Below are positions 2,751-55,625 of a stretch of 64,000 nucleotides of DNA, in pieces (the stretch's first letter is position 1; every line of letters begins with the position of its first letter). Location of the stretch: NCBI RefSeq assembly GCF_017348835.2, contig NZ_CP071375.1; one strand, 5' to 3'. Source of the DNA: Escherichia coli. GTDB taxonomy: Bacteria; Pseudomonadota; Gammaproteobacteria; Enterobacterales; Enterobacteriaceae. A program made the position numbers and the translations under genes. The notes beneath the pieces were generated by a model. The model had not been told where the DNA came from and made no database searches. It worked only from the letters and a program-made list of their open reading frames with translations.

Positions 2751-3628
2751 ACGTCAGGAAAGCAGGGGAGAATGCTGCTAGTTGGGCAACTGGTCTTTCT
2801 GCTCCAAATTATAACAGAGACCAGTTATAGTTTCGGTGCTGTGTTTTTTTTACAATATTGTGATAACACATTGCTGGCGGGAGTTTTGATATTTCTTGGC
2901 AGGGGCTGATGATGCGTTATCCTGATGTCGTCAACTCATATAAAATGAGATGAGAGATCATTGCAGGGTGGTTTGTAATTCGCTGTTTAGCGGGACAATA
3001 TGTTGTCTGATACAAGACACCCGACGCCTCAGATTACTATAATAAAGACGAAGCATCCTTTGTATTGACCAACCGCCTGTTTAGGCGGTTCTTTCTGGGC
3101 TGGTTTATTGTATGCCAAATGATTATTAAAAAGGTTGTGTTAATAACAAAATCCGAAATAATATGCCTGCATATTTTTATCTTGCTTATATTCTGCATAT
3201 TGTGCATAGCAGGCTCATCCCTGCAATCAAAACTGTATGATGAGTATTTTTTGTTTTCCTTTTTTCCAGTCATCTGATGATGACCTGCTTCTTTTTAATC
3301 CGGATCGACATCAGTTTTTTAAGATAATTCCTGCGAGTTATATGCATAAATGCCACAAACTCCGCATTTTATGTGGTTGGGAGTTGCCGGGCGCGCAGTG
3401 AGTTTGCTAAGAAAACTCCTGCATGGTGAATCCCCCTGTGCGGTGGGGTGATACCATTAACCTTTTCTGTCGCCGACAGGTATCACGAACATTTTGTTCA
3501 CCGGGAGGCACCCGGCACCATGCACTTCAATAGATTCTCTCCACATTATGGATATTCTTTCAGAATATCCCACGCAGACTTTGTGTAAATGTTAACAAAT
3601 GTGCGTTTTATTTGATCTGATTCGCTGT

Positions 3629-30728: not shown

Positions 30729-32774
30729 TTAATCGACAAAATCACCGTGCTGCCTGGCCACCAGCGTCAGAATTGAATACAGCGCCACCGGGGTTTGATG
30801 TTGATTGAATACCTCTACCGCCCATTCCACCACACCTGTTGGTTTTTCTTCTGCGCTACGCTGTTTTTTCAGCGTCTTGCGCTTACAGGTGAGACGCACC
30901 TGGATGGTATCGCCTGGCTTTACGGGTTCGATAAAACGCAAGCTTTCCAGCCCGTAGTTAGCAATGACCGGACCGACACCGGCATCGACAAACAGACCCG
31001 CAGCCGCAGAAAGCACAAAATATCCATGTACCACACGCTCACCAAAAATAGATTCGGCAGCAGCAATTTTATCCATATGTGCATAGAAATGATCGCCGCT
31101 GAGGCAAGCAAAGTTAACAATATCGGCCTCTGTCATTGTGCGGCGGGGAGTCAACAGGCTGTCGCCTGGTTGCAGCTCCTCAAAATATTTGCGGAACGGA
31201 TGAATACGATCTTCTTCGACTTTCGCACCACGCACCCACTGTTTACTGATAGCGGCAAGCATCGACGGACTACCCTGTACAGCGGTTCGCTGCATGTAAT
31301 GTTTCACCGCTCGTAAACCACCTAATTCTTCACCGCCTCCTGCGCGACCAGGCCCACCATGTACCAGTTGTGGCAGTGGGGAGCCATGCCCGGTGGATTC
31401 TTTTGCCGATTCTTCATTGAGGATCTGAATTCGCCCATGCGTACGTGCCGCATCGGCAATAAACTGACGCGCAATTTGCGGATCAGCCGTCACCAGCGTT
31501 CCCGCAAGGCTACCGCCGCCTGCACAAGCCAGTTGCAGAGCATGTTGCTGGTTTTGTGCTGGCATTAGCGTTGCGACAGGGCCAAAGGCTTCTGTTGCAT
31601 GTACCGCCGGTGTTTCATCCGGCTGCGGACAGTACAATAAGGTTGGCGGGAAGAAGGCACCCGCAGCAGATAAATCCGCCTGACCACCGAGGCGAATCTC
31701 GCATCCTGCAGCCAGCAATGTGTTCACTTTTTCCTGCACATCGGCACGCTGCTCAGCATTTACCAGTGCGCCCATTTTCACGCCTTCCTGCGCAGGATCA
31801 CCGACCACGACTTTCTGTAATCGCGCAACCAGAGCGTCACTGACAGCATTAACCAATATTTGCGGCACAATAATCCGCCGGATTGCCGTACATTTTTGCC
31901 CGGCTTTTGTGGTCATCTCACGCACAACTTCACGAATAAACAGCGCAAACTCCGGGTGATCCGGGGTGACATCTTCGCCCAGTACGCAGCAGTTCAGGGA
32001 ATCAGCTTCCATAGTGAAGGGGATAGATTTGGCTACGATATTTGGCTGAACTCGCAGCATCTGTCCGGTCGCCGCTGACCCCGTGAAAGTCACCACATCC
32101 TGGCTGTCCAGATGATCCAACAAGTCGCCCGCACTACCGCAGATCAGACTAATTGCGCCTTCGGGAACAAGACCACTATCGACAATTGATTTCACCATCG
32201 CCTGAGTCAGTTGGGCCGTCGCGGTGGCTGGTTTGATGATGGCTGGCATTCCGCCCAGCCACGTTGGTGCCAGCTTTTCCAGCATTCCCCAGCAGGGGAA
32301 GTTAAAGGCGTTAATATGCACTGCCACGCCTGACTTTGAGGTCAGTACATGGCGCGCGGCAAATCCACCTTCTTTCGATAATGGGATCAATTCATCTTCC
32401 GGCCACAGCGTATCGTCAGGCAGCTCCCGGATACCGAGGCTGGCGTAAGTAAATAACGTCCCAATACCGCCTTCAATATCAACCCAACTGTCTGCCCGCG
32501 TTGCGCCTGTTTGCGCAGAAAGAGCATAGAAACGCTCTTTTTCACTCAGCAGATGTTTAGCGACCGCTTTAAGCATCGCCGCACGTTCGATAAAGGTCAT
32601 AGCGCGAAGGGCTGGGGCACCTTTTTCAATGGCAAACAGGCGGGCAGCCGCCATATCAAGACCTTCACTGGTCACTTCCCATAACGCCTCGCCGCTAATA
32701 GCGTGATGAATCAAACGGCTACGGCCCCGGCCAGACTGCCAGGTACCGGATAAGAAACTGGCTAACTGCTGCAT
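30729..32774 (-). CDS. paaZ: Bifunctional oxepin-CoA hydrolase / aldehyde dehydrogenase PaaZ
   Basis: 681 aa with an aldehyde dehydrogenase N-domain and MaoC hydratase C-domain; divergent from paaA. Confidence 0.9.
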
Positions 32775-33006
32775 CGCTACTCTCCAGATGTTTCACATTT
32801 CTGTTGCTAATAGTTAAATCACGAATCATAAAAAGCAAGGCGTATTTTAACGAAATGTTAACTGTGCGATCTGTATATCAACTACTAAAAACATTAATGC
32901 ACTGATAAATAATGAGATATAAAAATAGGATGCGAAATCCGTCACAGTTCAAACATACAAAATTTGTGATTTTAGTTAACCGTTGTGTAACTTTCATAAA
33001 ACAACG

Positions 33007-33045
33007 TGATTCGTGTTTTTAATTAATTCACGAAAACTGGAATCG
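33007..33045. promoter_or_regulatory. Candidate PaaX operator in the paaA promoter region
   Basis: TGATTC (33007-33012), 27 nt, GAATCG (33040-33045); resembles the PaaX operator TGATTC-N27-GAATCA as recalled from the literature. Confidence 0.35.
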
Positions 33046-33058
33046 TAAAGGTGATGAC

Positions 33059-33988
33059 GTGACCCAAGAAGAACGCTTTGAGCAACGGATAGCCCAGGAA
33101 ACGGCTATCGAGCCGCAGGACTGGATGCCCGATGCTTACCGAAAGACACTGATCCGCCAGATTGGGCAGCATGCGCACTCCGAGATTGTTGGTATGTTGC
33201 CTGAAGGTAACTGGATCACTCGCGCACCAACCTTGCGGCGTAAAGCCATTCTGTTGGCCAAAGTGCAGGATGAAGCCGGTCATGGTCTGTATCTCTATAG
33301 CGCCGCCGAAACACTGGGCTGCGCCAGAGAAGACATCTACCAAAAAATGCTCGACGGACGGATGAAATATTCCTCCATCTTTAATTATCCGACATTGAGT
33401 TGGGCTGATATCGGCGTTATCGGCTGGCTGGTGGATGGCGCAGCGATCGTCAATCAGGTGGCGTTATGCCGCACTTCTTATGGCCCGTATGCCAGAGCAA
33501 TGGTGAAAATCTGCAAAGAAGAGAGTTTTCACCAGCGTCAGGGGTTTGAAGCCTGCATGGCACTGGCGCAGGGCAGCGAAGCTCAAAAGCAGATGTTGCA
33601 AGACGCCATTAACCGTTTCTGGTGGCCAGCCTTAATGATGTTCGGGCCAAACGATGATAACTCACCAAACAGCGCCAGAAGTCTCGCCTGGAAAATCAAA
33701 CGTTTCACCAACGACGAACTCCGCCAGCGTTTCGTGGATAACACCGTTCCACAGGTTGAAATGCTCGGTATGACCGTTCCTGACCCGGATCTGCATTTTG
33801 ACACTGAAAGCGGTCACTACCGCTTTGGTGAGATCGACTGGCAGGAGTTTAACGAAGTAATTAACGGTCGCGGAATTTGTAATCAGGAGCGGCTCGACGC
33901 CAAACGTAAAGCCTGGGAAGACGGTACCTGGGTACGGGAAGCAGCACTGGCCCATGCACAAAAACAACTTGCCCGTAAGGTCGCATAA
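33059..33988 (+). CDS. paaA: Phenylacetyl-CoA 1,2-epoxidase subunit A
   Basis: 309 aa from [14 protein letters not shown]; ferritin-like di-iron oxygenase. Confidence 0.9.
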
Positions 33989-33999
33989 GGAGATTCAAA

Positions 34000-34287
34000 A
34001 TGAGTAATGTTTACTGGCCGTTATACGAAGTTTTCGTGCGTGGCAAACAGGGCTTATCACACCGCCATGTTGGCAGTTTACATGCTGCCGATGAGCGGAT
34101 GGCACTGGAAAATGCCCGTGATGCTTACACCCGTCGTAGCGAAGGATGTTCAATTTGGGTGGTGAAGGCGAGTGAAATTGTTGCCTCGCAACCGGAAGAG
34201 CGCGGTGAATTTTTTGATCCGGCTGAAAGCAAGGTCTATCGCCATCCAACGTTTTACACCATCCCTGATGGCATTGAGCACATGTGA
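34000..34287 (+). CDS. paaB: Phenylacetyl-CoA epoxidase subunit B
   Basis: 95 aa, MSNVYWPLYEVFVRGKQGLSHRHVGSLHAAD. Confidence 0.9.
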   Translation: MSNVYWPLYEVFVRGKQGLSHRHVGSLHAADERMALENARDAYTRRSEGCSIWVVKASEIVASQPEERGEFFDPAESKVYRHPTFYTIPDGIEHM

Positions 34288-34295
34288 GGTCGGAA

Positions 34296-35041
34296 ATGAA
34301 TCAGTTAACGGCTTACACCTTGCGCCTGGGCGATAACTGTCTGGTGCTCTCCCAGCTGTTGGGTGAATGGTGCGGTCATGCACCGGAACTGGAAATCGAT
34401 CTCGCACTGGCAAACATTGGCCTCGATTTATTAGGTCAGGCACGCAACTTCTTATCGTATGCCGCTGAATTAGCGGGAGAAGGCGATGAAGATCCCTGGC
34501 CTTCACCCGAGACGAGCGCCAGTTCAGCAACTTATTGTTGGTTGAACAACCAAACGGCAATTTTGCCGACACCATTGCACGCCAGTATTTCATCGATGCA
34601 TGGCATGTGGCGCTCTTTACCCGTCTGATGGAAAGCCGTGATCCGCAACTGGCAGCGATTTCTGCCAAAGCAATTAAAGAAGCGCGTTATCACCTGCGTT
34701 TTAGTCGTGGCTGGCTGGAGCGACTGGGCAATGGTACTGACGTATCAGGGCAAAAGATGCAGCAGGCCATCGACAAGTTGTGGCGTTTTACTGCCGAACT
34801 GTTCGATGCCGACGAGATTGATATTGCACTGAGTGAAGAGGGTATTGCGGTTGATCCACGCACTTTACGCGCAGCGTGGGAAGCCGAAGTTTTTGCCGGA
34901 ATCAACGAAGCCACATTGAACGTGCCGCAAGAGCAGGCGTATCGCACTGGCGGTAAAAAAGGACTGCATACCGAACACCTTGGGCCAATGCTGGCAGAAA
35001 TGCAGTATCTCCAGCGTGTCTTGCCCGGTCAGCAGTGGTAA
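34296..35041 (+). pseudogene. paaC: paaC disrupted by a 1-nt frameshift near 34494
   Basis: The N-terminal 66 codons (MNQLTAY...GEGDED) are in one frame and the remainder (LAFTRDERQFSNLLLVEQPNGNF...LPGQQW) in the +1 frame. The two pieces sum to exactly the 248-aa PaaC length if one base is restored at gat|ccctgg. The ORF track shows this as 34284..34628 plus 34535..35041. Confidence 0.75.
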
Positions 35042-35055
35042 CAGAGGAGATGGGT

Positions 35056-35553
35056 ATGCAACGTCTGGCCACCATTGCACCGCCACAGGTGCATGAGATA
35101 TGGGCGCTACTCAGCCAGATCCCGGACCCGGAGATCCCGGTGCTGACCATTACCGATTTAGGCATGGTGCGTAATGTGACACAGATGGGAGAAGGATGGG
35201 TGATCGGCTTTACGCCGACATATTCCGGTTGTCCGGCAACGGAACATTTGATTGGCGCGATACGTGAGGCAATGACAACCAACGGGTTTACCCCCGTTCA
35301 GGTTGTGCTGCAACTCGACCCGGCATGGACCACCGACTGGATGACCCCCGATGCCCGTGAGCGTCTGCGACAGTATGGCATTAGCCCGCCCGCCGGGCAC
35401 AGTTGTCATGCCCATTTGCCGCCAGAAGTACGTTGCCCGCGTTGCGCCAGCGTCCATACCACACTTATCAGTGAATTTGGTTCCACGGCCTGCAAAGCAT
35501 TGTATCGCTGCGATAGTTGCCGCGAACCTTTCGATTATTTCAAATGTATTTGA
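35056..35553 (+). CDS. paaD: Phenylacetate degradation protein PaaD
   Basis: 165 aa from MQRLATIAPPQVHEIWALL; C-terminal Cys cluster. Confidence 0.85.
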   Translation: MQRLATIAPPQVHEIWALLSQIPDPEIPVLTITDLGMVRNVTQMGEGWVIGFTPTYSGCPATEHLIGAIREAMTTNGFTPVQVVLQLDPAWTTDWMTPDARERLRQYGISPPAGHSCHAHLPPEVRCPRCASVHTTLISEFGSTACKALYRCDSCREPFDYFKCI

Positions 35554-35560
35554 GGATGCC

Positions 35561-36631
35561 ATGACAACGTTTCATTCCTTAACGGTGGCAAAAGTGGAGC
35601 CGGAAACCCGTGATGCGGTGACCATTACCTTTGCGGTGCCCCAGCCTTTGCAGGAGGCGTATCGCTTTCGCCCCGGTCAACACTTGACCTTAAAAGCCAG
35701 CCTTGATGGTGAAGAATTACGCCGTTGTTACTCCATTTGCCGCAGCTACCTGCCTGGCGAAATTAGTGTGGCGGTGAAAGCCATTGAAGGCGGACGTTTC
35801 TCCCGCTATGCCCGCGAACACATCCGCCAGGGGATGACGCTGGAGGTCATGGTGCCGCAGGGGCATTTCGGCTATCAGCCGCAGGCCGAACGCCAGGGCC
35901 GCTATCTGGCAATTGCAGCAGGATCAGGTATTACGCCAATGCTGGCGATTATCGCCACCACTTTACAAACCGAGCCTGAAAGTCAGTTCACCCTGATCTA
36001 CGGTAACCGTACCAGCCAGAGCATGATGTTTCGCCAGGCACTGGCAGACCTGAAAGACAAATATCCTCAGCGTTTACAGTTGTTGTGCATTTTCAGTCAG
36101 GAAACCCTCGACAGCGATCTGCTTCACGGGCGTATTGACGGTGAAAAATTACAGTCAATTGGGACCTCGCTCATTAATTTTCGTCTTTATGATGAAGCGT
36201 TTATTTGTGGTCCGGCGGCGATGATGGATGACGCGGAAACCGCCTTAAAAGCACTGGGAATGCCAGAAAAAGCGATTCATCTGGAGCGGTTTAATACGCC
36301 TGGCACGCGCGTCAAACGTAACGTTAACGTGCAAAGTGACGGACAAAAAGTGACTGTGCGTCAGGATGGGCGGGATCGGGAAATCGTGCTTAATGCCGAC
36401 GATGAAAGCATTCTCGATGCGGCATTGCGCCAGGGGGCGGATCTGCCCTATGCCTGCAAAGGCGGCGTCTGTGCGACCTGCAAATGCAAAGTGCTGCGTG
36501 GCAAAGTGGCGATGGAAACCAATTACAGTCTGGAACCGGATGAACTGGCCGCAGGCTATGTGTTGAGTTGCCAGGCACTGCCGCTGACCAGCGATGTGGT
36601 GGTTGACTTTGACGCGAAGGGGATGGCATGA
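35561..36631 (+). CDS. paaE: Phenylacetyl-CoA epoxidase reductase subunit PaaE
   Basis: 356 aa from MTTFHSLTVAKVEPETRDAV; FNR-like reductase with a C-terminal 2Fe-2S ferredoxin (CKGGVCATCKCKVLRG). Confidence 0.9.
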   Translation: MTTFHSLTVAKVEPETRDAVTITFAVPQPLQEAYRFRPGQHLTLKASLDGEELRRCYSICRSYLPGEISVAVKAIEGGRFSRYAREHIRQGMTLEVMVPQGHFGYQPQAERQGRYLAIAAGSGITPMLAIIATTLQTEPESQFTLIYGNRTSQSMMFRQALADLKDKYPQRLQLLCIFSQETLDSDLLHGRIDGEKLQSIGTSLINFRLYDEAFICGPAAMMDDAETALKALGMPEKAIHLERFNTPGTRVKRNVNVQSDGQKVTVRQDGRDREIVLNADDESILDAALRQGADLPYACKGGVCATCKCKVLRGKVAMETNYSLEPDELAAGYVLSCQALPLTSDVVVDFDAKGMA

Positions 36632-37395
36632 GCGAACTGATCGTCAGCCGTCAGCAACGAGTATTGTTGCTGACCCTTAACCGTCCTGCCGCACGTAATG
36701 CGCTGAATAATGCCCTGCTGACGCAACTGGTAAATGAACTGGAAGCTGCGGCTATCGATACCAGCATTTCGGTCTGTGTGATTACCGGTAATGCACGCTT
36801 TTTTGCCGCCGGGGCCGATCTCAACGAAATGGCGGAAAAAGATCTTGCGGCCACCTTAAACGATACACGTCCGCAGCTATGGGCGCGATTGCAGGCCTTT
36901 AACAAACCACTCATCGCAGCCGTCAACGGTTACGCGCTTGGTGCGGGTTGCGAACTGGCATTGTTGTGCGATGTGGTGGTTGCCGGAGAGAACGCGCGTT
37001 TTGGGTTGCCGGAAATCACTCTCGGCATCATGCCTGGCGCAGGCGGAACGCAACGTTTAATCCGTAGTGTCGGTAAATCGTTAGCCTGCAAAATGGTGCT
37101 GAGCGGAGAAAGCATCACCGCCCAGCAAGCACAGCAGGCCGGGCTGGTTAGCGACGTCTTTCCCAGCGATTTAACCCTCGAATACGCCTTACAACTGGCA
37201 TCGAAAATAGCACGTCACTCGCCGCTGGCCTTACAAGCGGCAAAGCAAGCGCTGCGCCAGTCGCAGGAAGTGGCTTTGCAAGCCGGACTTGCCCAGGAGC
37301 GACAGTTATTCACCTTGCTGGCGGCAACAGAAGATCGTCATGAAGGCATCTCTGCTTTCTTACAAAAACGCACGCCTGACTTTAAAGGACGCTAA
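36628..37395 (+). CDS. paaF: Enoyl-CoA hydratase PaaF
   Basis: 255 aa, crotonase fold. Confidence 0.9.
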   Translation: MSELIVSRQQRVLLLTLNRPAARNALNNALLTQLVNELEAAAIDTSISVCVITGNARFFAAGADLNEMAEKDLAATLNDTRPQLWARLQAFNKPLIAAVNGYALGAGCELALLCDVVVAGENARFGLPEITLGIMPGAGGTQRLIRSVGKSLACKMVLSGESITAQQAQQAGLVSDVFPSDLTLEYALQLASKIARHSPLALQAAKQALRQSQEVALQAGLAQERQLFTLLAATEDRHEGISAFLQKRTPDFKGR

Positions 37396-38183
37396 TGATG
37401 GAATTCATCCTCAGTCATGTAGAAAAGGGCGTGATGACACTAACGCTCAACCGCCCGGAACGCCTGAACAGTTTTAATGATGAGATGCACGCACAACTGG
37501 CAGAGTGCCTGAAACAGGCCGAGCGCGACGACACTATCCGTTGCCTGTTGATTACAGGTGCCGGACGTGGATTTTGTGCTGGTCAGGATCTTAACGATCG
37601 TAACGTTGATCCCACAGGCCCCGCACCGGATTTAGGGATGTCAGTTGAACGTTTCTATAACCCACTGGTACGTCGCCTGGCAAAACTGCCAAAACCAGTG
37701 ATCTGTGCAGTTAATGGCGTGGCTGCAGGGGCAGGCGCAACACTGGCACTGGGGTGCGATATCGTTATTGCTGCCCGTTCAGCAAAATTCGTCATGGCTT
37801 TTAGTAAGTTAGGCTTAGTACCCGATTGCGGTGGAACCTGGTTACTGCCACGCGTTGCTGGACGAGCGCGCGCCATGGGGCTGGCACTGCTGGGGAATCA
37901 ACTGAGTGCTGAACAGGCGCACGAATGGGGGATGATCTGGCAGGTTGTTGATGATGAAACGCTGGCAGATACCGCGCAACAGCAGGCACGGCATCTGGCG
38001 ACACAACCGACATTTGGTCTTGGACTTATCAAGCAAGCGATAAATAGCGCTGAAACCAATACGCTTGATACGCAACTGGATCTGGAACGCGACTATCAGC
38101 GACTTGCCGGACGGAGCGCAGATTATCGTGAAGGTGTCAGTGCGTTCCTGGCTAAACGCTCACCGCAGTTCACGGGGAAATAG
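37395..38183 (+). CDS. paaG: 1,2-epoxyphenylacetyl-CoA isomerase PaaG
   Basis: 262 aa, crotonase family. Confidence 0.9.
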   Translation: MMEFILSHVEKGVMTLTLNRPERLNSFNDEMHAQLAECLKQAERDDTIRCLLITGAGRGFCAGQDLNDRNVDPTGPAPDLGMSVERFYNPLVRRLAKLPKPVICAVNGVAAGAGATLALGCDIVIAARSAKFVMAFSKLGLVPDCGGTWLLPRVAGRARAMGLALLGNQLSAEQAHEWGMIWQVVDDETLADTAQQQARHLATQPTFGLGLIKQAINSAETNTLDTQLDLERDYQRLAGRSADYREGVSAFLAKRSPQFTGK

Positions 38184-38184
38184 C

Positions 38185-39612
38185 ATGATGATAAATGTGC
38201 AAACTGTGGCAGTGATTGGGAGCGGCACCATGGGGGCTGGCATTGCTGAAGTTGCCGCCAGTCATGGACATCAGGTTTTACTGTATGACATATCTGCTGA
38301 AGCGCTGACCCGCGCAATCGACGGGATACACGCGCGGCTAAATTCACGCGTGACGCGGGGAAAACTGACTGCTGAAACCTGTGAACGCACATTGAAACGC
38401 CTGATCCCGGTGACCGATATTCACGCCCTGGCAGCTGCGGACCTGGTCATTGAAGCGGCGTCTGAGCGTCTGGAAGTCAAAAAAGCGCTCTTTCTACAGC
38501 TGGCGGAAGTTTGCCCGCCACAAACGCTATTGACCACTAACACTTCGTCAATCTCTATAACCGCGATTGCTGCGGAGGTAAAAAATCCTGAACGTGTTGC
38601 GGGGCTGCATTTTTTTAACCCGGCACCGGTGATGAAGTTGGTGGAGGTGGTCAGTGGGCTGGCAACGGCAGCGGAAGTTGTTGAGCAGTTGTGTGAACTA
38701 ACGTTGAGTTGGGGTAAGCAGCCTGTGCGCTGTCATTCGACTCCTGGATTTATCGTTAACCGTGTTGCGCGTCCTTATTATTCCGAGGCCTGGCGGGCAC
38801 TGGAAGAGCAGGTTGCTGCACCAGAAGTGATTGACGCTGCACTTCGCGATGGCGCTGGTTTCCCGATGGGGCCGCTGGAATTAACCGATCTGATTGGTCA
38901 GGACGTCAATTTTGCTGTCACCTGTTCGGTGTTTAACGCTTTCTGGCAGGAGCGTCGTTTTTTGCCTTCGCTGGTGCAACAGGAACTGGTGATTGGTGGA
39001 CGGTTGGGCAAAAAAAGTGGGCTGGGCGTGTACGACTGGCGCGCGGAACGTGAGGCAGTTGTTGGCCTGGAAGCGGTAAGCGACAGTTTTAGCCCAATGA
39101 AAGTAGAAAATAAAAGTGACGGCGTCACGGAAATTGACGATGTTTTATTGATTGAGACACAAGGCGAGACGGCACAGGCGCTGGCAACACGATTGGCGCG
39201 CCCGGTGGTAGTTATCGACAAAATGGCGGGCAAGGTGGTGACCATTGCTGCGGCAGCGGTGAACCCGGACTCAGCGACCCACAAGGCCATTTATTACCTG
39301 CAACAACAGGGAAAAACAGTGCTGCAAATTGCAGATTACCCAGGAATGCTGATTTGGCGAACGGTAGCAATGATCATCAATGAAGCCCTCGATGCGCTGC
39401 AAAAAGGCGTGGCCTCTGAACAGGATATCGATACCGCCATGCGTCTTGGGGTGAATTATCCATATGGCCCACTTGCCTGGGGAGCGCAACTTGGCTGGCA
39501 GCGAATATTAAGGCTCCTGGAAAATCTACAGCATCACTATGGCGAAGAACGCTATCGCCCATGTTCATTGCTGCGCCAACGGGCGCTTCTGGAGAGCGGT
39601 TATGAGTCATAA
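38185..39612 (+). CDS. paaH: 3-hydroxyadipyl-CoA dehydrogenase PaaH
   Basis: 475 aa from MMINVQTVAVIGSGTMGAGIAEVAASHG (NAD-binding Rossmann motif). Confidence 0.9.
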   Translation: MMINVQTVAVIGSGTMGAGIAEVAASHGHQVLLYDISAEALTRAIDGIHARLNSRVTRGKLTAETCERTLKRLIPVTDIHALAAADLVIEAASERLEVKKALFLQLAEVCPPQTLLTTNTSSISITAIAAEVKNPERVAGLHFFNPAPVMKLVEVVSGLATAAEVVEQLCELTLSWGKQPVRCHSTPGFIVNRVARPYYSEAWRALEEQVAAPEVIDAALRDGAGFPMGPLELTDLIGQDVNFAVTCSVFNAFWQERRFLPSLVQQELVIGGRLGKKSGLGVYDWRAEREAVVGLEAVSDSFSPMKVENKSDGVTEIDDVLLIETQGETAQALATRLARPVVVIDKMAGKVVTIAAAAVNPDSATHKAIYYLQQQGKTVLQIADYPGMLIWRTVAMIINEALDALQKGVASEQDIDTAMRLGVNYPYGPLAWGAQLGWQRILRLLENLQHHYGEERYRPCSLLRQRALLESGYES

Positions 39613-40024
39613 GGCCTGGCAAAATGCCCATGCAATTTATGAGAACGATGCCTGCGCCAAAGCGCTTGGCATCGACATTATCTCAATGGATGAAGGCTTT
39701 GCTGTAGTGACCATGACCGTCACTGCACAAATGCTTAATGGTCATCAAAGTTGCCACGGCGGGCAGCTATTTTCACTGGCTGATACTGCCTTTGCCTACG
39801 CCTGCAATAGCCAGGGGCTGGCAGCCGTCGCTTCTGCCTGCACGATTGATTTTTTGCGTCCAGGCTTTGCCGGAGACACCTTAACTGCTACTGCGCAGGT
39901 ACGTCATCAGGGCAAGCAAACCGGTGTTTACGACATCGAAATTGTTAACCAACAACAAAAAACGGTTGCGCTGTTTCGCGGTAAATCTCACCGCATCGGC
40001 GGCACCATTACAGGAGAAGCCTGA
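39602..40024 (+). CDS. paaI: Hotdog-fold acyl-CoA thioesterase PaaI
   Basis: 140 aa from MSHKAWQNAHAIYENDACAKALG. Confidence 0.9.
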   Translation: MSHKAWQNAHAIYENDACAKALGIDIISMDEGFAVVTMTVTAQMLNGHQSCHGGQLFSLADTAFAYACNSQGLAAVASACTIDFLRPGFAGDTLTATAQVRHQGKQTGVYDIEIVNQQQKTVALFRGKSHRIGGTITGEA

Positions 40025-41229
40025 TGCGTGAAGCCTTTATTTGTGACGGAATTCGTACGCCAATTGGTCGCTACGGCGGGGCATTATCAGGTGTTCGGGC
40101 TGATGATCTGGCTGCTATCCCTTTGCGGGAACTGCTAGTGCGAAACCCGCGTCTCGATGCGGAATGTATCGATGATGTGATCCTCGGCTGTGCTAATCAG
40201 GCGGGAGAAGATAACCGTAACGTAGCCCGGATGGCGACTTTACTGGCGGGGCTGCCGCAGAGTGTTTCCGGCACAACCATTAACCGCTTGTGTGGTTCCG
40301 GGCTGGACGCACTGGGGTTTGCCGCACGGGCGATTAAAGCGGGCGATGGCGATTTGCTGATCGCCGGTGGCGTGGAGTCAATGTCACGGGCACCGTTTGT
40401 TATGGGCAAGGCAGCCAGTGCATTTTCTCGTCAGGCAGAGATGTTCGATACCACTATTGGCTGGCGATTTGTGAACCCGCTCATGGCTCAGCAATTTGGA
40501 ACTGACAGCATGCCGGAAACGGCAGAGAATGTAGCTGAACTGTTAAAAATATCACGAGAAGATCAAGATAGTTTTGCGCTACGCAGTCAGCAACGTACGG
40601 CAAAAGCGCAATCCTCAGGCATTCTGGCTGAGGAGATTGTTCCGGTTGTGTTGAAAAATAAGAAAGGTGTTGTAACAGAAATACAACATGATGAGCATCT
40701 GCGCCCGGAAACGACACTGGAACAGTTACGTGGGCTGAAAGCACCGTTTCGTGCCAATGGGGTGATTACCGCAGGCAATGCCTCCGGGGTGAATGACGGA
40801 GCCGCTGCGTTGATTATTGCCAGTGAACAGATGGCAGCAGCGCATGGACTGACGCCGCGAGCGCGTATCGTAGCCATGGCAACCGCCGGGGTGGAACCGC
40901 GTCTGATGGGGCTTGGTCCGGTGCCTGCAACTCGCCGGGTGCTGGAACGCGCGGGGCTGAGTATTCACGATATGGACGTGATTGAACTGAACGAAGCGTT
41001 CGCGGCCCAGGCGTTGGGTGTACTACGCGAATTGGGGCTGCCTGATGATGCCCCACATGTTAACCCCAACGGAGGCGCTATCGCCTTAGGCCATCCGTTG
41101 GGAATGAGTGGTGCCCGCCTGGCACTGGCTGCCAGCCATGAGCTGCATCGGCGTAACGGTCGTTACGCATTATGCACCATGTGCATCGGTGTCGGTCAGG
41201 GCATCGCCATGATTCTGGAGCGTGTTTGA
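40024..41229 (+). CDS. paaJ: 3-oxoadipyl-CoA / 3-oxo-5,6-dehydrosuberyl-CoA thiolase PaaJ
   Basis: 401 aa thiolase with active-site Cys region [10 protein letters not shown] and C-terminal CIGVGQG. Confidence 0.9.
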
Positions 41230-41255
41230 GCATATCAACCTGCGAGTACCTTACA

Positions 41256-42569
41256 ATGATAACCAATACAAAGCTTGACCCGATTGAAACCGCGTCTGTT
41301 GATGAGTTACAGGCGTTGCAAACACAGCGTCTGAAATGGACGCTCAAACACGCGTATGAAAATGTGCCGATGTATCGGCGCAAATTCGACGCAGCAGGCG
41401 TACATCCTGATGATTTCAGGGAACTTTCAGACCTGCGTAAATTTCCCTGTACCACCAAACAGGATCTGCGCGACAACTATCCCTTCGACACCTTTGCCGT
41501 GCCGATGGAACAAGTGGTGCGCATTCATGCTTCTTCGGGAACCACAGGTAAACCGACAGTTGTCGGCTATACGCAAAACGATATTGATAACTGGGCCAAT
41601 ATTGTAGCGCGTTCGTTGCGTGCGGCGGGTGGCACGCCCAAAGACAAAATTCATGTTGCCTATGGTTACGGCCTGTTTACTGGTGGGCTGGGCGCGCACT
41701 ATGGTGCCGAACGTCTGGGCGCTACGGTGATCCCGATGTCTGGTGGGCAGACGGAAAAACAAGCGCAACTGATCCGCGATTTTCAACCAGATATGATCAT
41801 GGTTACGCCATCTTATTGCCTTAACCTGATTGAAGAGCTGGAGCGGCAGTTGGGCGGTGATGCCAGCGGTTGCTCGCTGCGGGTTGGAGTGTTTGGTGCT
41901 GAGCCGTGGACACAGGCCATGCGTAAAGAAATTGAGCGTCGCCTGGGGATCACCGCACTGGATATTTATGGCCTGTCAGAAGTGATGGGGCCGGGGGTGG
42001 CGATGTAGTGTCTGGAAACTACCGACGGCCCAACCATTTGGGAAGATCATTTCTATCCTGAAATTGTTAATCCTCATGACGGCACACCGCTTGCCGATGG
42101 TGAACATGGCGAACTGTTATTCACCACGCTGACCAAAGAAGCATTGCCGGTCATTCGTTACCGCACGCGTGATTTAACCCGACTGTTACCAGGAACGGCG
42201 CGGACTATGCGCCGCATGGATCGCATCAGCGGACGCAGCGATGACATGTTGATTATTCGCGGTGTAAATGTCTTTCCGTCACAACTGGAAGAAGAGATTG
42301 TCAAATTCGAACATTTATCGCCGCATTACCAACTGGAGGTGAACCGCCGGGGGCATCTTGATTCACTTTCTGTGAAAGTAGAGCTGAAAGAAAGCAGCCT
42401 GACATTGACGCATGAGCAGCGTTGCCAGGTGTGCCACCAGCTACGCCATCGGATTAAGTCGATGGTGGGGATTTCTACCGATGTGATGATCGTTAACTGT
42501 GGCAGTATCCCGCGTTCAGAAGGCAAGGCGTGTCGGGTGTTTGATCTGCGCAATATTGTTGGTGCCTGA
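41256..42569 (+). pseudogene. paaK: paaK (phenylacetate-CoA ligase) interrupted by an in-frame TAG at 42006-42008
   Basis: From MITNTKLDPIETAS the frame gives 437 codons in total, but codon ~251 is TAG (...GPGVAM*CLETTDGPTIW...). The rest of the gene continues in the same frame and matches PaaK, as listed in the ORF track (41172..42008 and 42144..42569). Confidence 0.75.
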
Positions 42570-42630
42570 CGTGTCGTATGGCCCTGGAGGGGTAAAGCGC
42601 CAGGGCCAGAAGTCGATACGACCTGTGCTA

Positions 42631-42668
42631 TGATTCATAAATCACAACAATAACAACAGACTGAATCG
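42631..42668. promoter_or_regulatory. Candidate PaaX autoregulatory operator
   Basis: TGATTC (42631-42636), 26 nt, GAATCG (42663-42668), immediately upstream of the paaX start. Confidence 0.35.
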
Positions 42669-42669
42669 A

Positions 42670-43620
42670 ATGAGTAAACTTGATACTTTTATCCAACATG
42701 CTGTAAACGCTGTTCCGGTCAGTGGCACTTCTTTGATCTCCTCTCTGTATGGTGATTCGCTTTCCCATCGTGGTGGTGAAATCTGGCTGGGTAGTCTGGC
42801 TGCTTTGCTGGAAGGGCTGGGATTTGGTGAGCGTTTCGTGCGCACCGCTTTGTTTCGTCTTAATAAAGAAGGCTGGCTGGATGTTTCCCGCATCGGGCGA
42901 CGCAGTTTCTATAGCCTCAGTGATAAAGGCTTGCGCCTGACGCGACGGGCAGAAAGTAAAATTTATCGCGCAGAGCAACCTGCATGGGATGGTAAATGGC
43001 TCCTGTTGCTCTCGGAAGGTTTAGATAAAGCGACGCTGGCTGATGTCAAAAAGCAGTTGATCTGGCAAGGTTTTGGCGCACTTGCACCCAGCCTGATGGC
43101 ATCGCCGTCGCAAAAACTGGCGGATGTACAGACACTTTTGCATGAAGCGGGTGTGGCGGATAACGTGATTTGTTTTGAAGCGCAAATACCACTGGCGCTT
43201 TCTCGTGCAGCACTGCGTGCCAGAGTGGAAGAGTGCTGGCATTTAACTGAACAAAATGCCATGTACGAAACCTTTATTCAGTCATTCCGCCCGCTGGTGC
43301 CGCTGTTAAAAGAGACGGCAGACGAGTTAACCCCGGAGCGTGCATTTCATATTCAGCTTTTACTGATCCATTTTTATCGCCGTGTCGTCCTTAAAGACCC
43401 ATTGTTGCCGGAGGAGTTGCTTCCGGCTCACTGGGCAGGGCATACGGCGCGTCAGCTGTGTATCAACATTTATCAGCGCGTAGCGCCTGCTGCTTTAGCG
43501 TTCGTTAGTGAAAAAGGTGAAACCTCGGTCGGTGAACTGCCTGCGCCGGGAAGCCTGTATTTTCAACGTTTTGGCGGCTTGAATATTGAACAGGAGGCGT
43601 TATGCCAATTTACCAGATAG
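42670..43620 (+). CDS. paaX: Transcriptional repressor PaaX
   Basis: 316 aa, PaaX family. Confidence 0.9.
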
Positions 43621-44192
43621 ATGGTCTGACTCCGGTTGTGCCAGAAGAGAGCTTTGTCCATCCGACAGCGGTATTGATCGGCGATGTTATTCTCGGGAAG
43701 GGCGTTTACGTTGGGCCAAATGCCAGCCTGCGTGGCGATTTTGGTCGTATCGTGGTGAAAGATGGCGCGAACATTCAGGATAATTGCGTTATGCACGGTT
43801 TTCCCGAGCAGGATACTGTCGTGGAAGAAGATGGACATATTGGTCATAGCGCTATCCTTCACGGCTGCATTATCCGCCGCAATGCATTAGTGGGAATGAA
43901 CGCGGTAGTGATGGACGGTGCGGTGATTGGTGAGAACAGCATTGTTGGCGCATCCGCATTTGTGAAAGCCAAAGCAGAAATGCCTGCTAATTACCTGATT
44001 GTCGGCAGCCCGGCGAAAGCGATTCGTGAACTCAGTGAGCAGGAGCTGGCATGGAAAAAGCAGGGCACGCATGAGTATCAGGTGCTGGTGACACGCTGTA
44101 AGCAGACGTTGCATCAAGTTGAGCCATTGCGGGAAGTTGAACCGGACAGAAAACGTCTGGTATTTGATGAAAATCTGCGACCAAAACAGTAA
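43602..44192 (+). CDS. paaY: Hexapeptide-repeat thioesterase PaaY
   Basis: 196 aa, left-handed beta-helix / gamma-carbonic-anhydrase-like repeats. Confidence 0.9.
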
Positions 44193-54588: not shown

Positions 54589-54832
54589 AGGATATTTAAA
54601 GAAAACGCCTGTACTAAAACCGACCCGTGGTACAGGCGAAGAATACGGGTCTACATCGGAAGCGCCTATTATATTTATTTGTATGACAAATAAAACCATA
54701 ATCCTTGCCCATACGTCCATCTGGCTTATTTTTAATCAATTCACCCGATCTTTGATCTCATCAACGGTATCAAAATAAACCAGCGTATAACGTTCAAATC
54801 GAACATAAGATTCGATAAACCATGGAGGTTAT

Positions 54833-55077: not shown

Positions 55078-55227
<150 letters not shown>

Positions 55228-55625
55228 AGCCTTTCTCCTTGCCGGATGGCGGGTAAGAGGCTAAGATCTGAATTGCTAGGTTCATTCGTTGGCCTCGGTT
55301 GATAGAAATGTCGGTCGGGGCCTTCGTCTTTCTGATTCCCGGTTAGCCTGAAAACAGAAAGTCTCAGGCACCCGCAGGCATCCTATGAGGTTTCCTTAGG
55401 GACGAAAATAATCACTTCACGAAATTGCGTGCTGTTTTCCAGAATTTTTCGTCATTCGGGTTAGCCAGTTTAACTATTCCTCACTTTCTTCATTCCAATG
55501 GCATTAACCTTCTCTGCAATAATTGTTGTAAAAATGTGACGCAAAGAGGCTTTTAGTCGTAAGTAATTACCGTCAAATGCCGATGACTTTCTATCAGGAG
55601 TAAACCTGGACGAGAGACAACGGTA

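Follow-up and report, generated by a model that had tools for sequence, protein, structure and literature searches.

We conclude, with a probability of roughly 93% for the explanation as a whole, that three bipartite sequences in a 64,000-nucleotide stretch of the Escherichia coli chromosome (the window) are predicted operators of PaaX, the phenylacetyl-CoA-responsive repressor, at the promoters Pa (paaA-K), Px (paaXY) and Pz (paaZ). The explanation includes a proposed mechanism of repression and a paa operon that is probably silenced and is decaying. An earlier note had flagged the Pa and Px sites; the third site, on the paaZ side, was absent from it. We read the sites as PaaX operators because they match the published consensus, because all three matches of a tolerant scan fall in paa promoters, because they are conserved across genera, because E. 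coli W has exactly the same sequences at Pa and Px, and because the cognate repressor is encoded in the same genome. The window carries the gene order feaR-feaB-tynA-paaZ, the divergent paaABCDEFGHIJK operon and paaXY, and the sites sit in the promoter regions of paaZ, paaA-K and paaXY, which are the PaaX-regulated units described in PMC9493321. Gene coordinates were obtained by translation against K-12 and are collected with the sites in Table 1.

Table 1. Predicted PaaX operators and paa genes in the window
Feature	Position	Strand	Description
Pa operator (predicted)	33007-33045	+	TGATTC-N27-GAATCG; TGATTCGTGTTTTTAATTAATTCACGAAAACTGGAATCG
Px operator (predicted)	42631-42668	+	TGATTC-N26-GAATCG; TGATTCATAAATCACAACAATAACAACAGACTGAATCG
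Pz operator (predicted)	32789-32828	-	plus-strand reading TGTTTC-N28-GAATCA; paaZ-strand reading TGATTC-N28-GAAACA
paaZ	30729-32774	-	681 aa, intact, divergent from paaA
paaABCDEFGHIJK operon	33059-42569	+	full length save paaC and paaK (gene-by-gene translation against K-12)
paaA	33059-33988	+	GTG start
paaC pseudogene	34296-35041	+	1-bp deletion
paaK pseudogene	41256-42569	+	E251*
paaX	42670-43620	+	repressor gene; 316 aa, intact
paaY	43602-44192	+	thioesterase gene co-transcribed with paaX; 196 aa, intact

The earlier note had likened the strings ahead of paaA and paaX to the bipartite PaaX operator. Both strings are present exactly as it gave them, upstream of the paaA and paaX starts, and the likeness is borne out by the literature and by the conservation of hexamers and spacing described below. 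The E. coli PaaX site is given as TGATTC(N27)GAATCA in the review PMC9493321, which draws this consensus from Kim et al. 2004, Ferrandez et al. 2000 and Fernandez et al. 2014. Each of the three sites agrees with the inverted hexamers TGATTC and GAATCA at 11 of the 12 half-site positions. In the direction of transcription, every one of them has a perfect TGATTC, then a spacer of 26-28 nt, then a GAATCA-like hexamer by the ribosome-binding site or start codon, and it is this gene-proximal hexamer that departs from the consensus in E. coli (Pa and Px have GAATCG, K-12 Px has GAAGCG, and Pz has GAAACA). The spacers (N27 at Pa, N26 at Px, N28 at Pz) fall within the range seen in other genera and are 71-74% A+T, as counted from the sequence. 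In all three operators the half-site centres are 32-34 bp apart, or about three helical turns, which puts both half-sites on approximately the same face of the helix. The 3' end of the Pa operator is 13 nt ahead of the paaA GTG and directly 5' of an AAGGTGA ribosome-binding site; the Px operator ends 1 nt ahead of the paaX ATG, and the gene-proximal half of the Pz operator ends 14 nt ahead of the paaZ ATG. By eye, the sites also fit a 15-bp motif, WWTRTGATTCGYGWT, which we take to be a PaaX motif: Pz (TTTATGATTCGTGAT) agrees at 15 of 15 positions and Pa (AACGTGATTCGTGTT) at 14 of 15. A full-text literature search for this 15-bp motif or a "PaaX box" gave nothing useful, operator coordinates were absent from the further literature mentioning PaaX, and the K-12 RefSeq annotation has no binding-site features in this region.

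For a comparison across genera, we gathered 80 loci by a PaaX query, one genome per species, with PaaX 73-99% identical to the query. The genera represented in this set include, besides others, Citrobacter, Enterobacter, Lelliottia, Leclercia, Klebsiella, Raoultella, Kluyvera, Pluralibacter, Trabulsiella, Yokenella, Pseudocitrobacter, Silvania, Cedecea, Buttiauxella and Rosenbergiella. At paaX, a perfect TGATTC-N26/27-GAATCA stands 1 nt short of the ATG in about 50 loci, which represent more than 15 genera, and its spacer differs between loci; the more distant group of Cedecea, Buttiauxella and Rosenbergiella is without a site at that position. At paaA, a gap of 12-15 nt separates a perfect TGATTC-N27/28-GAATCA from the start codon in almost all of the roughly 55 loci. 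On the paaZ side, about 230 nt further upstream of the paaA site, TG[T/G]T[A/T]C-N28-GAATCA is present in almost all loci of sufficient sequence length; one locus (L066) has no match to this pattern. Information content per column peaks on the hexamers and is low in the spacers. Thus the hexamers, their 26-28 nt spacing and their distance from the start codon are kept across about 55 species, drawn from more than 15 enterobacterial genera, while the spacer sequences vary, and within E. coli the divergent alleles of the Pa site likewise carry changes in spacer bases only.

Conservation of this kind could have a different cause, namely that the hexamers are kept as core promoter, as a translation-initiation signal or as the site of another factor such as CRP or IHF, with PaaX binding elsewhere. 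The promoter geometry gives this reading some footing. At Px, the left half-site overlaps an invariant extended -10-like element, TGCTATGAT, at 42626-42634, and at Pz the promoter-proximal hexamer overlaps the TATGAT -10-like element TTTTTATGAT; both overlaps were assigned by eye. The gene-proximal halves adjoin a ribosome-binding site or start codon, and the paaZ-paaA intergenic region holds conserved blocks other than the operators. We nevertheless consider this reading very unlikely, because three promoters that are unrelated in other respects each carry the inverted hexamer pair, spaced by 26-28 nt, because this pair equals the published PaaX consensus, and because a -10 element or ribosome-binding site needs no matched inverted partner three helical turns away. 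At Px and Pz, PaaX is reported to compete with RNA polymerase, and at Pa to act in a different mode (PMC9493321); the overlap with a TATGAT element at Px and Pz agrees with this report.

The geometry at Pa is different. A conserved block, TGTAACTTT, lies at 32986-32994, upstream of the Pa operator. A CRP-like sequence, TGCGAAATCCGTCACA (TGCGA-N6-TCACA), lies at 32931-32946 with its centre at 32938.5; by eye, its pentamers are conserved across genera and its spacer is not. Together, the block and the CRP-like site suggest a Pa transcription start near 33000, which would place the predicted PaaX site at about +8 to +46, consistent with a block after recruitment of RNA polymerase. The centre of the CRP-like site is about 61.5 nt upstream of this candidate start. 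Two additional blocks are visible across genera in the paaZ-paaA intergenic region, TTAACTGTGCGATC at 32858-32871 and TTTGTGA..TTAAC at 32963-32980; with the block at 32986-32994, they are unexplained by PaaX and may be promoter, IHF or CRP elements. All -10 and -35 assignments were made by eye and the promoter geometry is deduced from them. A sigma-70 consensus scan of both regulatory regions returned one weak minus-strand match and none at Px, which was no better than shuffled sequence.

We dropped an explanation by a riboswitch or small RNA because an Rfam scan placed no family in either regulatory region. Elsewhere in the window, Rfam matches at gathering score lie at 3391-3577, 10094-10292, 16250-16370, 54599-54662 and 55222-55373 (STnc100, IS009, MicC, RydC and sok antitoxin RNA). 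Between the paaK stop and Px, at 42570-42620, is a stable hairpin (GUCGUAUGGCCCUGG...CCAGGGCC...AUACGAC; -29.6 kcal/mol, z-score -3.56), which is without a U-tract and is unconserved in sequence in other genera.

The regulatory genes of the locus are preserved. PaaX is identical to its K-12 counterpart at 313 of 316 residues, and none of the differences falls in residues 1-120, the part that includes the DNA-binding domain. It contains the Pfam domains PaaX, PaaX_M and PaaX_C and matches the solved structure of E. coli PaaX (PDB 8a39, E = 3.6e-205). PaaY, with hexapeptide repeat domains, is identical to K-12 PaaY at 193 of 196 residues.

The structural operon has fared differently from the regulatory circuit, as the earlier note had proposed when it described an intact circuit beside two knockouts. 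Exactly two paa genes are broken; the others have their full length, with about 98-100% identity to K-12. In paaC, a 1-bp deletion at 34494 (GATACCC to GATCCC), outside any homopolymer run, shifts the frame after codon 66; in paaK, GAG is changed to TAG at 42006-42008, giving E251*. Two closely related complete genomes from pig isolates allow the lesions to be ordered. The window is separated from PE164 by 2 SNPs across 22.6 kb and from F2_81 by 8 SNPs and one indel across 26.6 kb. The paaK stop, E251*, is common to the three strains and is annotated as an internal stop in PE164 and F2_81; in the next nearest complete genome paaK is intact. The paaC deletion is present in PE164, where the gene is annotated as frameshifted, and absent from F2_81. 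An internal stop in paaZ is found in F2_81 alone (window equivalent 32342 or 32393), and paaA Q13* (CAG to TAG; window equivalent 33095) in PE164 alone.

These distributions bear on whether the lesions are real. Were the paaC and paaK changes sequencing or assembly errors, the operon would be functional, and single-base indels are indeed a frequent assembly artefact. The paaC deletion, however, lies outside a homopolymer run and recurs in the independently assembled complete genome PE164, and the paaK change is a substitution common to two independent complete genomes, PE164 and F2_81. Because the lesions recur in this way, we regard error as very unlikely. With the lesions taken as genuine, the presence of E251* in all three strains beside knockouts that differ between them suggests stepwise decay after the loss of paaK, and parsimony places the paaK mutation first, with independent secondary mutations arising later in the sister strains. 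Since those strains bear further, independent stops in paaZ or paaA, the decay of the paa operon, as read from these genomes, is recent and ongoing; the note's proposal of recent pseudogenisation is upheld by the same distribution. Loss of the pathway is common in E. coli, because the cluster is absent from roughly 42% of complete genomes: the paa regulatory regions are found in about 3,130-3,165 of 5,426. Three copies of the paa locus in complete E. coli genomes are carried on plasmids.

We also asked how selective the operator pattern is within the window. The pattern TGATTC-N20-34-GAATCG, scanned on both strands, has 2 matches, which are the Pa and Px sites; shuffled windows average 0.21, and at least two matches arise in 3 of 100. 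With up to one mismatch allowed, TGATTC-N25-29-GAATCA has exactly 3 matches in the 64 kb, at Pz, Pa and Px, against an expectation of 0.99 ± 0.98 per window from a Markov simulation, and all three lie within about 385 nt of paa regulatory intergenic DNA. At two mismatches there are 22 matches in the 64-kb window against 16 ± 4 expected, and because this count is not above expectation, the scan gives no evidence of further PaaX sites in the window, for example near tynA, feaB or feaR. We give practically no credence to the two flagged strings being functionless chance occurrences of a short AT-rich pattern that fixes only 12 bases, a view to which the 3 shuffles and the slight surplus at two mismatches could lend something, because every match with up to one mismatch is in a paa promoter and the retention of hexamers, spacing and start-codon distance in about 55 species despite spacer divergence effectively excludes it.

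With the sites read as PaaX operators, we propose the following mechanism. According to PMC9493321, the promoters repressed by PaaX are Pa, Pz and Px, the last of them its own, and the inducer that releases PaaX is phenylacetyl-CoA. From the literature and the geometry of the sites, a PaaX oligomer would contact both hexamers through its N-terminal winged-helix domains. A single oligomer could span the pair on one face of the AT-rich, bendable spacer, because the half-site centres are about three helical turns apart. Because the promoter-proximal hexamer overlaps the TATGAT -10-like element at Px and Pz, binding there would cover this element and exclude RNA polymerase. At Pa, the operator is probably downstream of the promoter elements, and PaaX would block a later step. 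Phenylacetyl-CoA made by PaaK would then release PaaX from its sites.

In the strain analysed here, this last step is probably missing. Because the loss of PaaK removes the synthesis of phenylacetyl-CoA from phenylacetate, the inducer is probably not made and PaaX would stay bound. The circuit, judged from its genes and sites, is therefore probably locked in repression, with its sequence intact and its input lost, on the assumption that there is no other source of phenylacetyl-CoA. Permanent binding of PaaX would in turn leave the remaining paa genes transcriptionally silent and so free to decay. The description of the circuit as intact thus stands for its sequence, with paaX and paaY full length and the operators present, and probably fails for its function, given that inducer synthesis from phenylacetate is lost without PaaK.

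In most other genera, Citrobacter excepted, the Pa and Px sites are perfect in each half, with GAATCA next to the gene, whereas the E. coli gene-proximal half is degenerate (GAATCG or GAAGCG). The right half of Px (42663-42668) is dimorphic within E. coli, with GAATCG in the window and in W and GAAGCG in K-12. Among about 3,165 complete E. coli genomes with the locus, the exact 60-nt haplotype of the window at Px occurs in 1,479 and that of K-12 in 1,657. In most other genera (L005-L081), the right half-site ahead of paaX reads GAATGAATCAnATG, which creates an in-frame ATG inside the operator, 9 nt (3 codons) upstream of the annotated paaX ATG; E. coli has CTG at that position. Neither candidate ATG is preceded by an obvious Shine-Dalgarno sequence.

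One could suppose that the weakened E. coli half-sites, with the near 50:50 dimorphism at Px, reflect a functional adjustment of how strongly PaaX represses its own gene and of how leaky the operon is, and that intact paaXY and three operators in a lineage with a dead operon reflect a role of PaaX and PaaY beyond phenylacetate catabolism, and not merely too little time for decay. We think this improbable, if clearly less so than the alternatives weighed above.

PaaX, its bipartite operator and its three promoters are textbook E. coli aromatic catabolism. Since the repressor, the operator and the target promoters were already known, the sites are a correct re-identification at the canonical locus, and the significance beyond correct annotation is small. 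What is added is a cross-genus footprint from which the operator emerges as TGATTC-N26-28-GAATCA, placed at a constant distance from each of the paaZ, paaA and paaX starts, the weakened gene-proximal half-sites of E. coli with the Px dimorphism in the population, and an example of staged decay, in which an ancestral paaK nonsense mutation ends inducer synthesis and is followed by different second and third mutations in sister strains.

The closest known systems are the PaaX operators of E. coli W and K-12; the K-12 counterparts of the sites have the coordinates 1453657-1453696 (Pz), 1453875-1453913 (Pa) and 1463500-1463537 (Px). At Pa, Pz and Px, the genes, positions and hexamers are the same as in the window, except for the right half of Px in K-12. 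The Pa and Px sites of W equal those of the window base for base, the Pa site of K-12 is also identical, and the Pz site of both strains differs from that of the window by one spacer base, with identical hexamers. PaaX studies name E. coli W in their titles, from which we take W to be the probable source of the fragments in the published binding work. Unlike the W and K-12 systems, the operon in the window is inactivated by the paaC frameshift and paaK E251*, and the inducer-producing step is missing. In other Enterobacteriaceae (among them Klebsiella, Enterobacter, Citrobacter, Kluyvera, Raoultella and Lelliottia), the PaaX sites have the same bipartite architecture, spacing and distances to the paaA and paaX starts. 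Typical operators of the GntR family are inverted repeats as well, and their winged-helix repressors respond to a pathway intermediate by leaving the DNA. Those operators, however, are short palindromes whose half-sites lie about one helical turn from each other, whereas the half-sites of PaaX are separated by about three turns and an AT-rich spacer, and PaaX differs from the GntR-family repressors in having Pfam families of its own.
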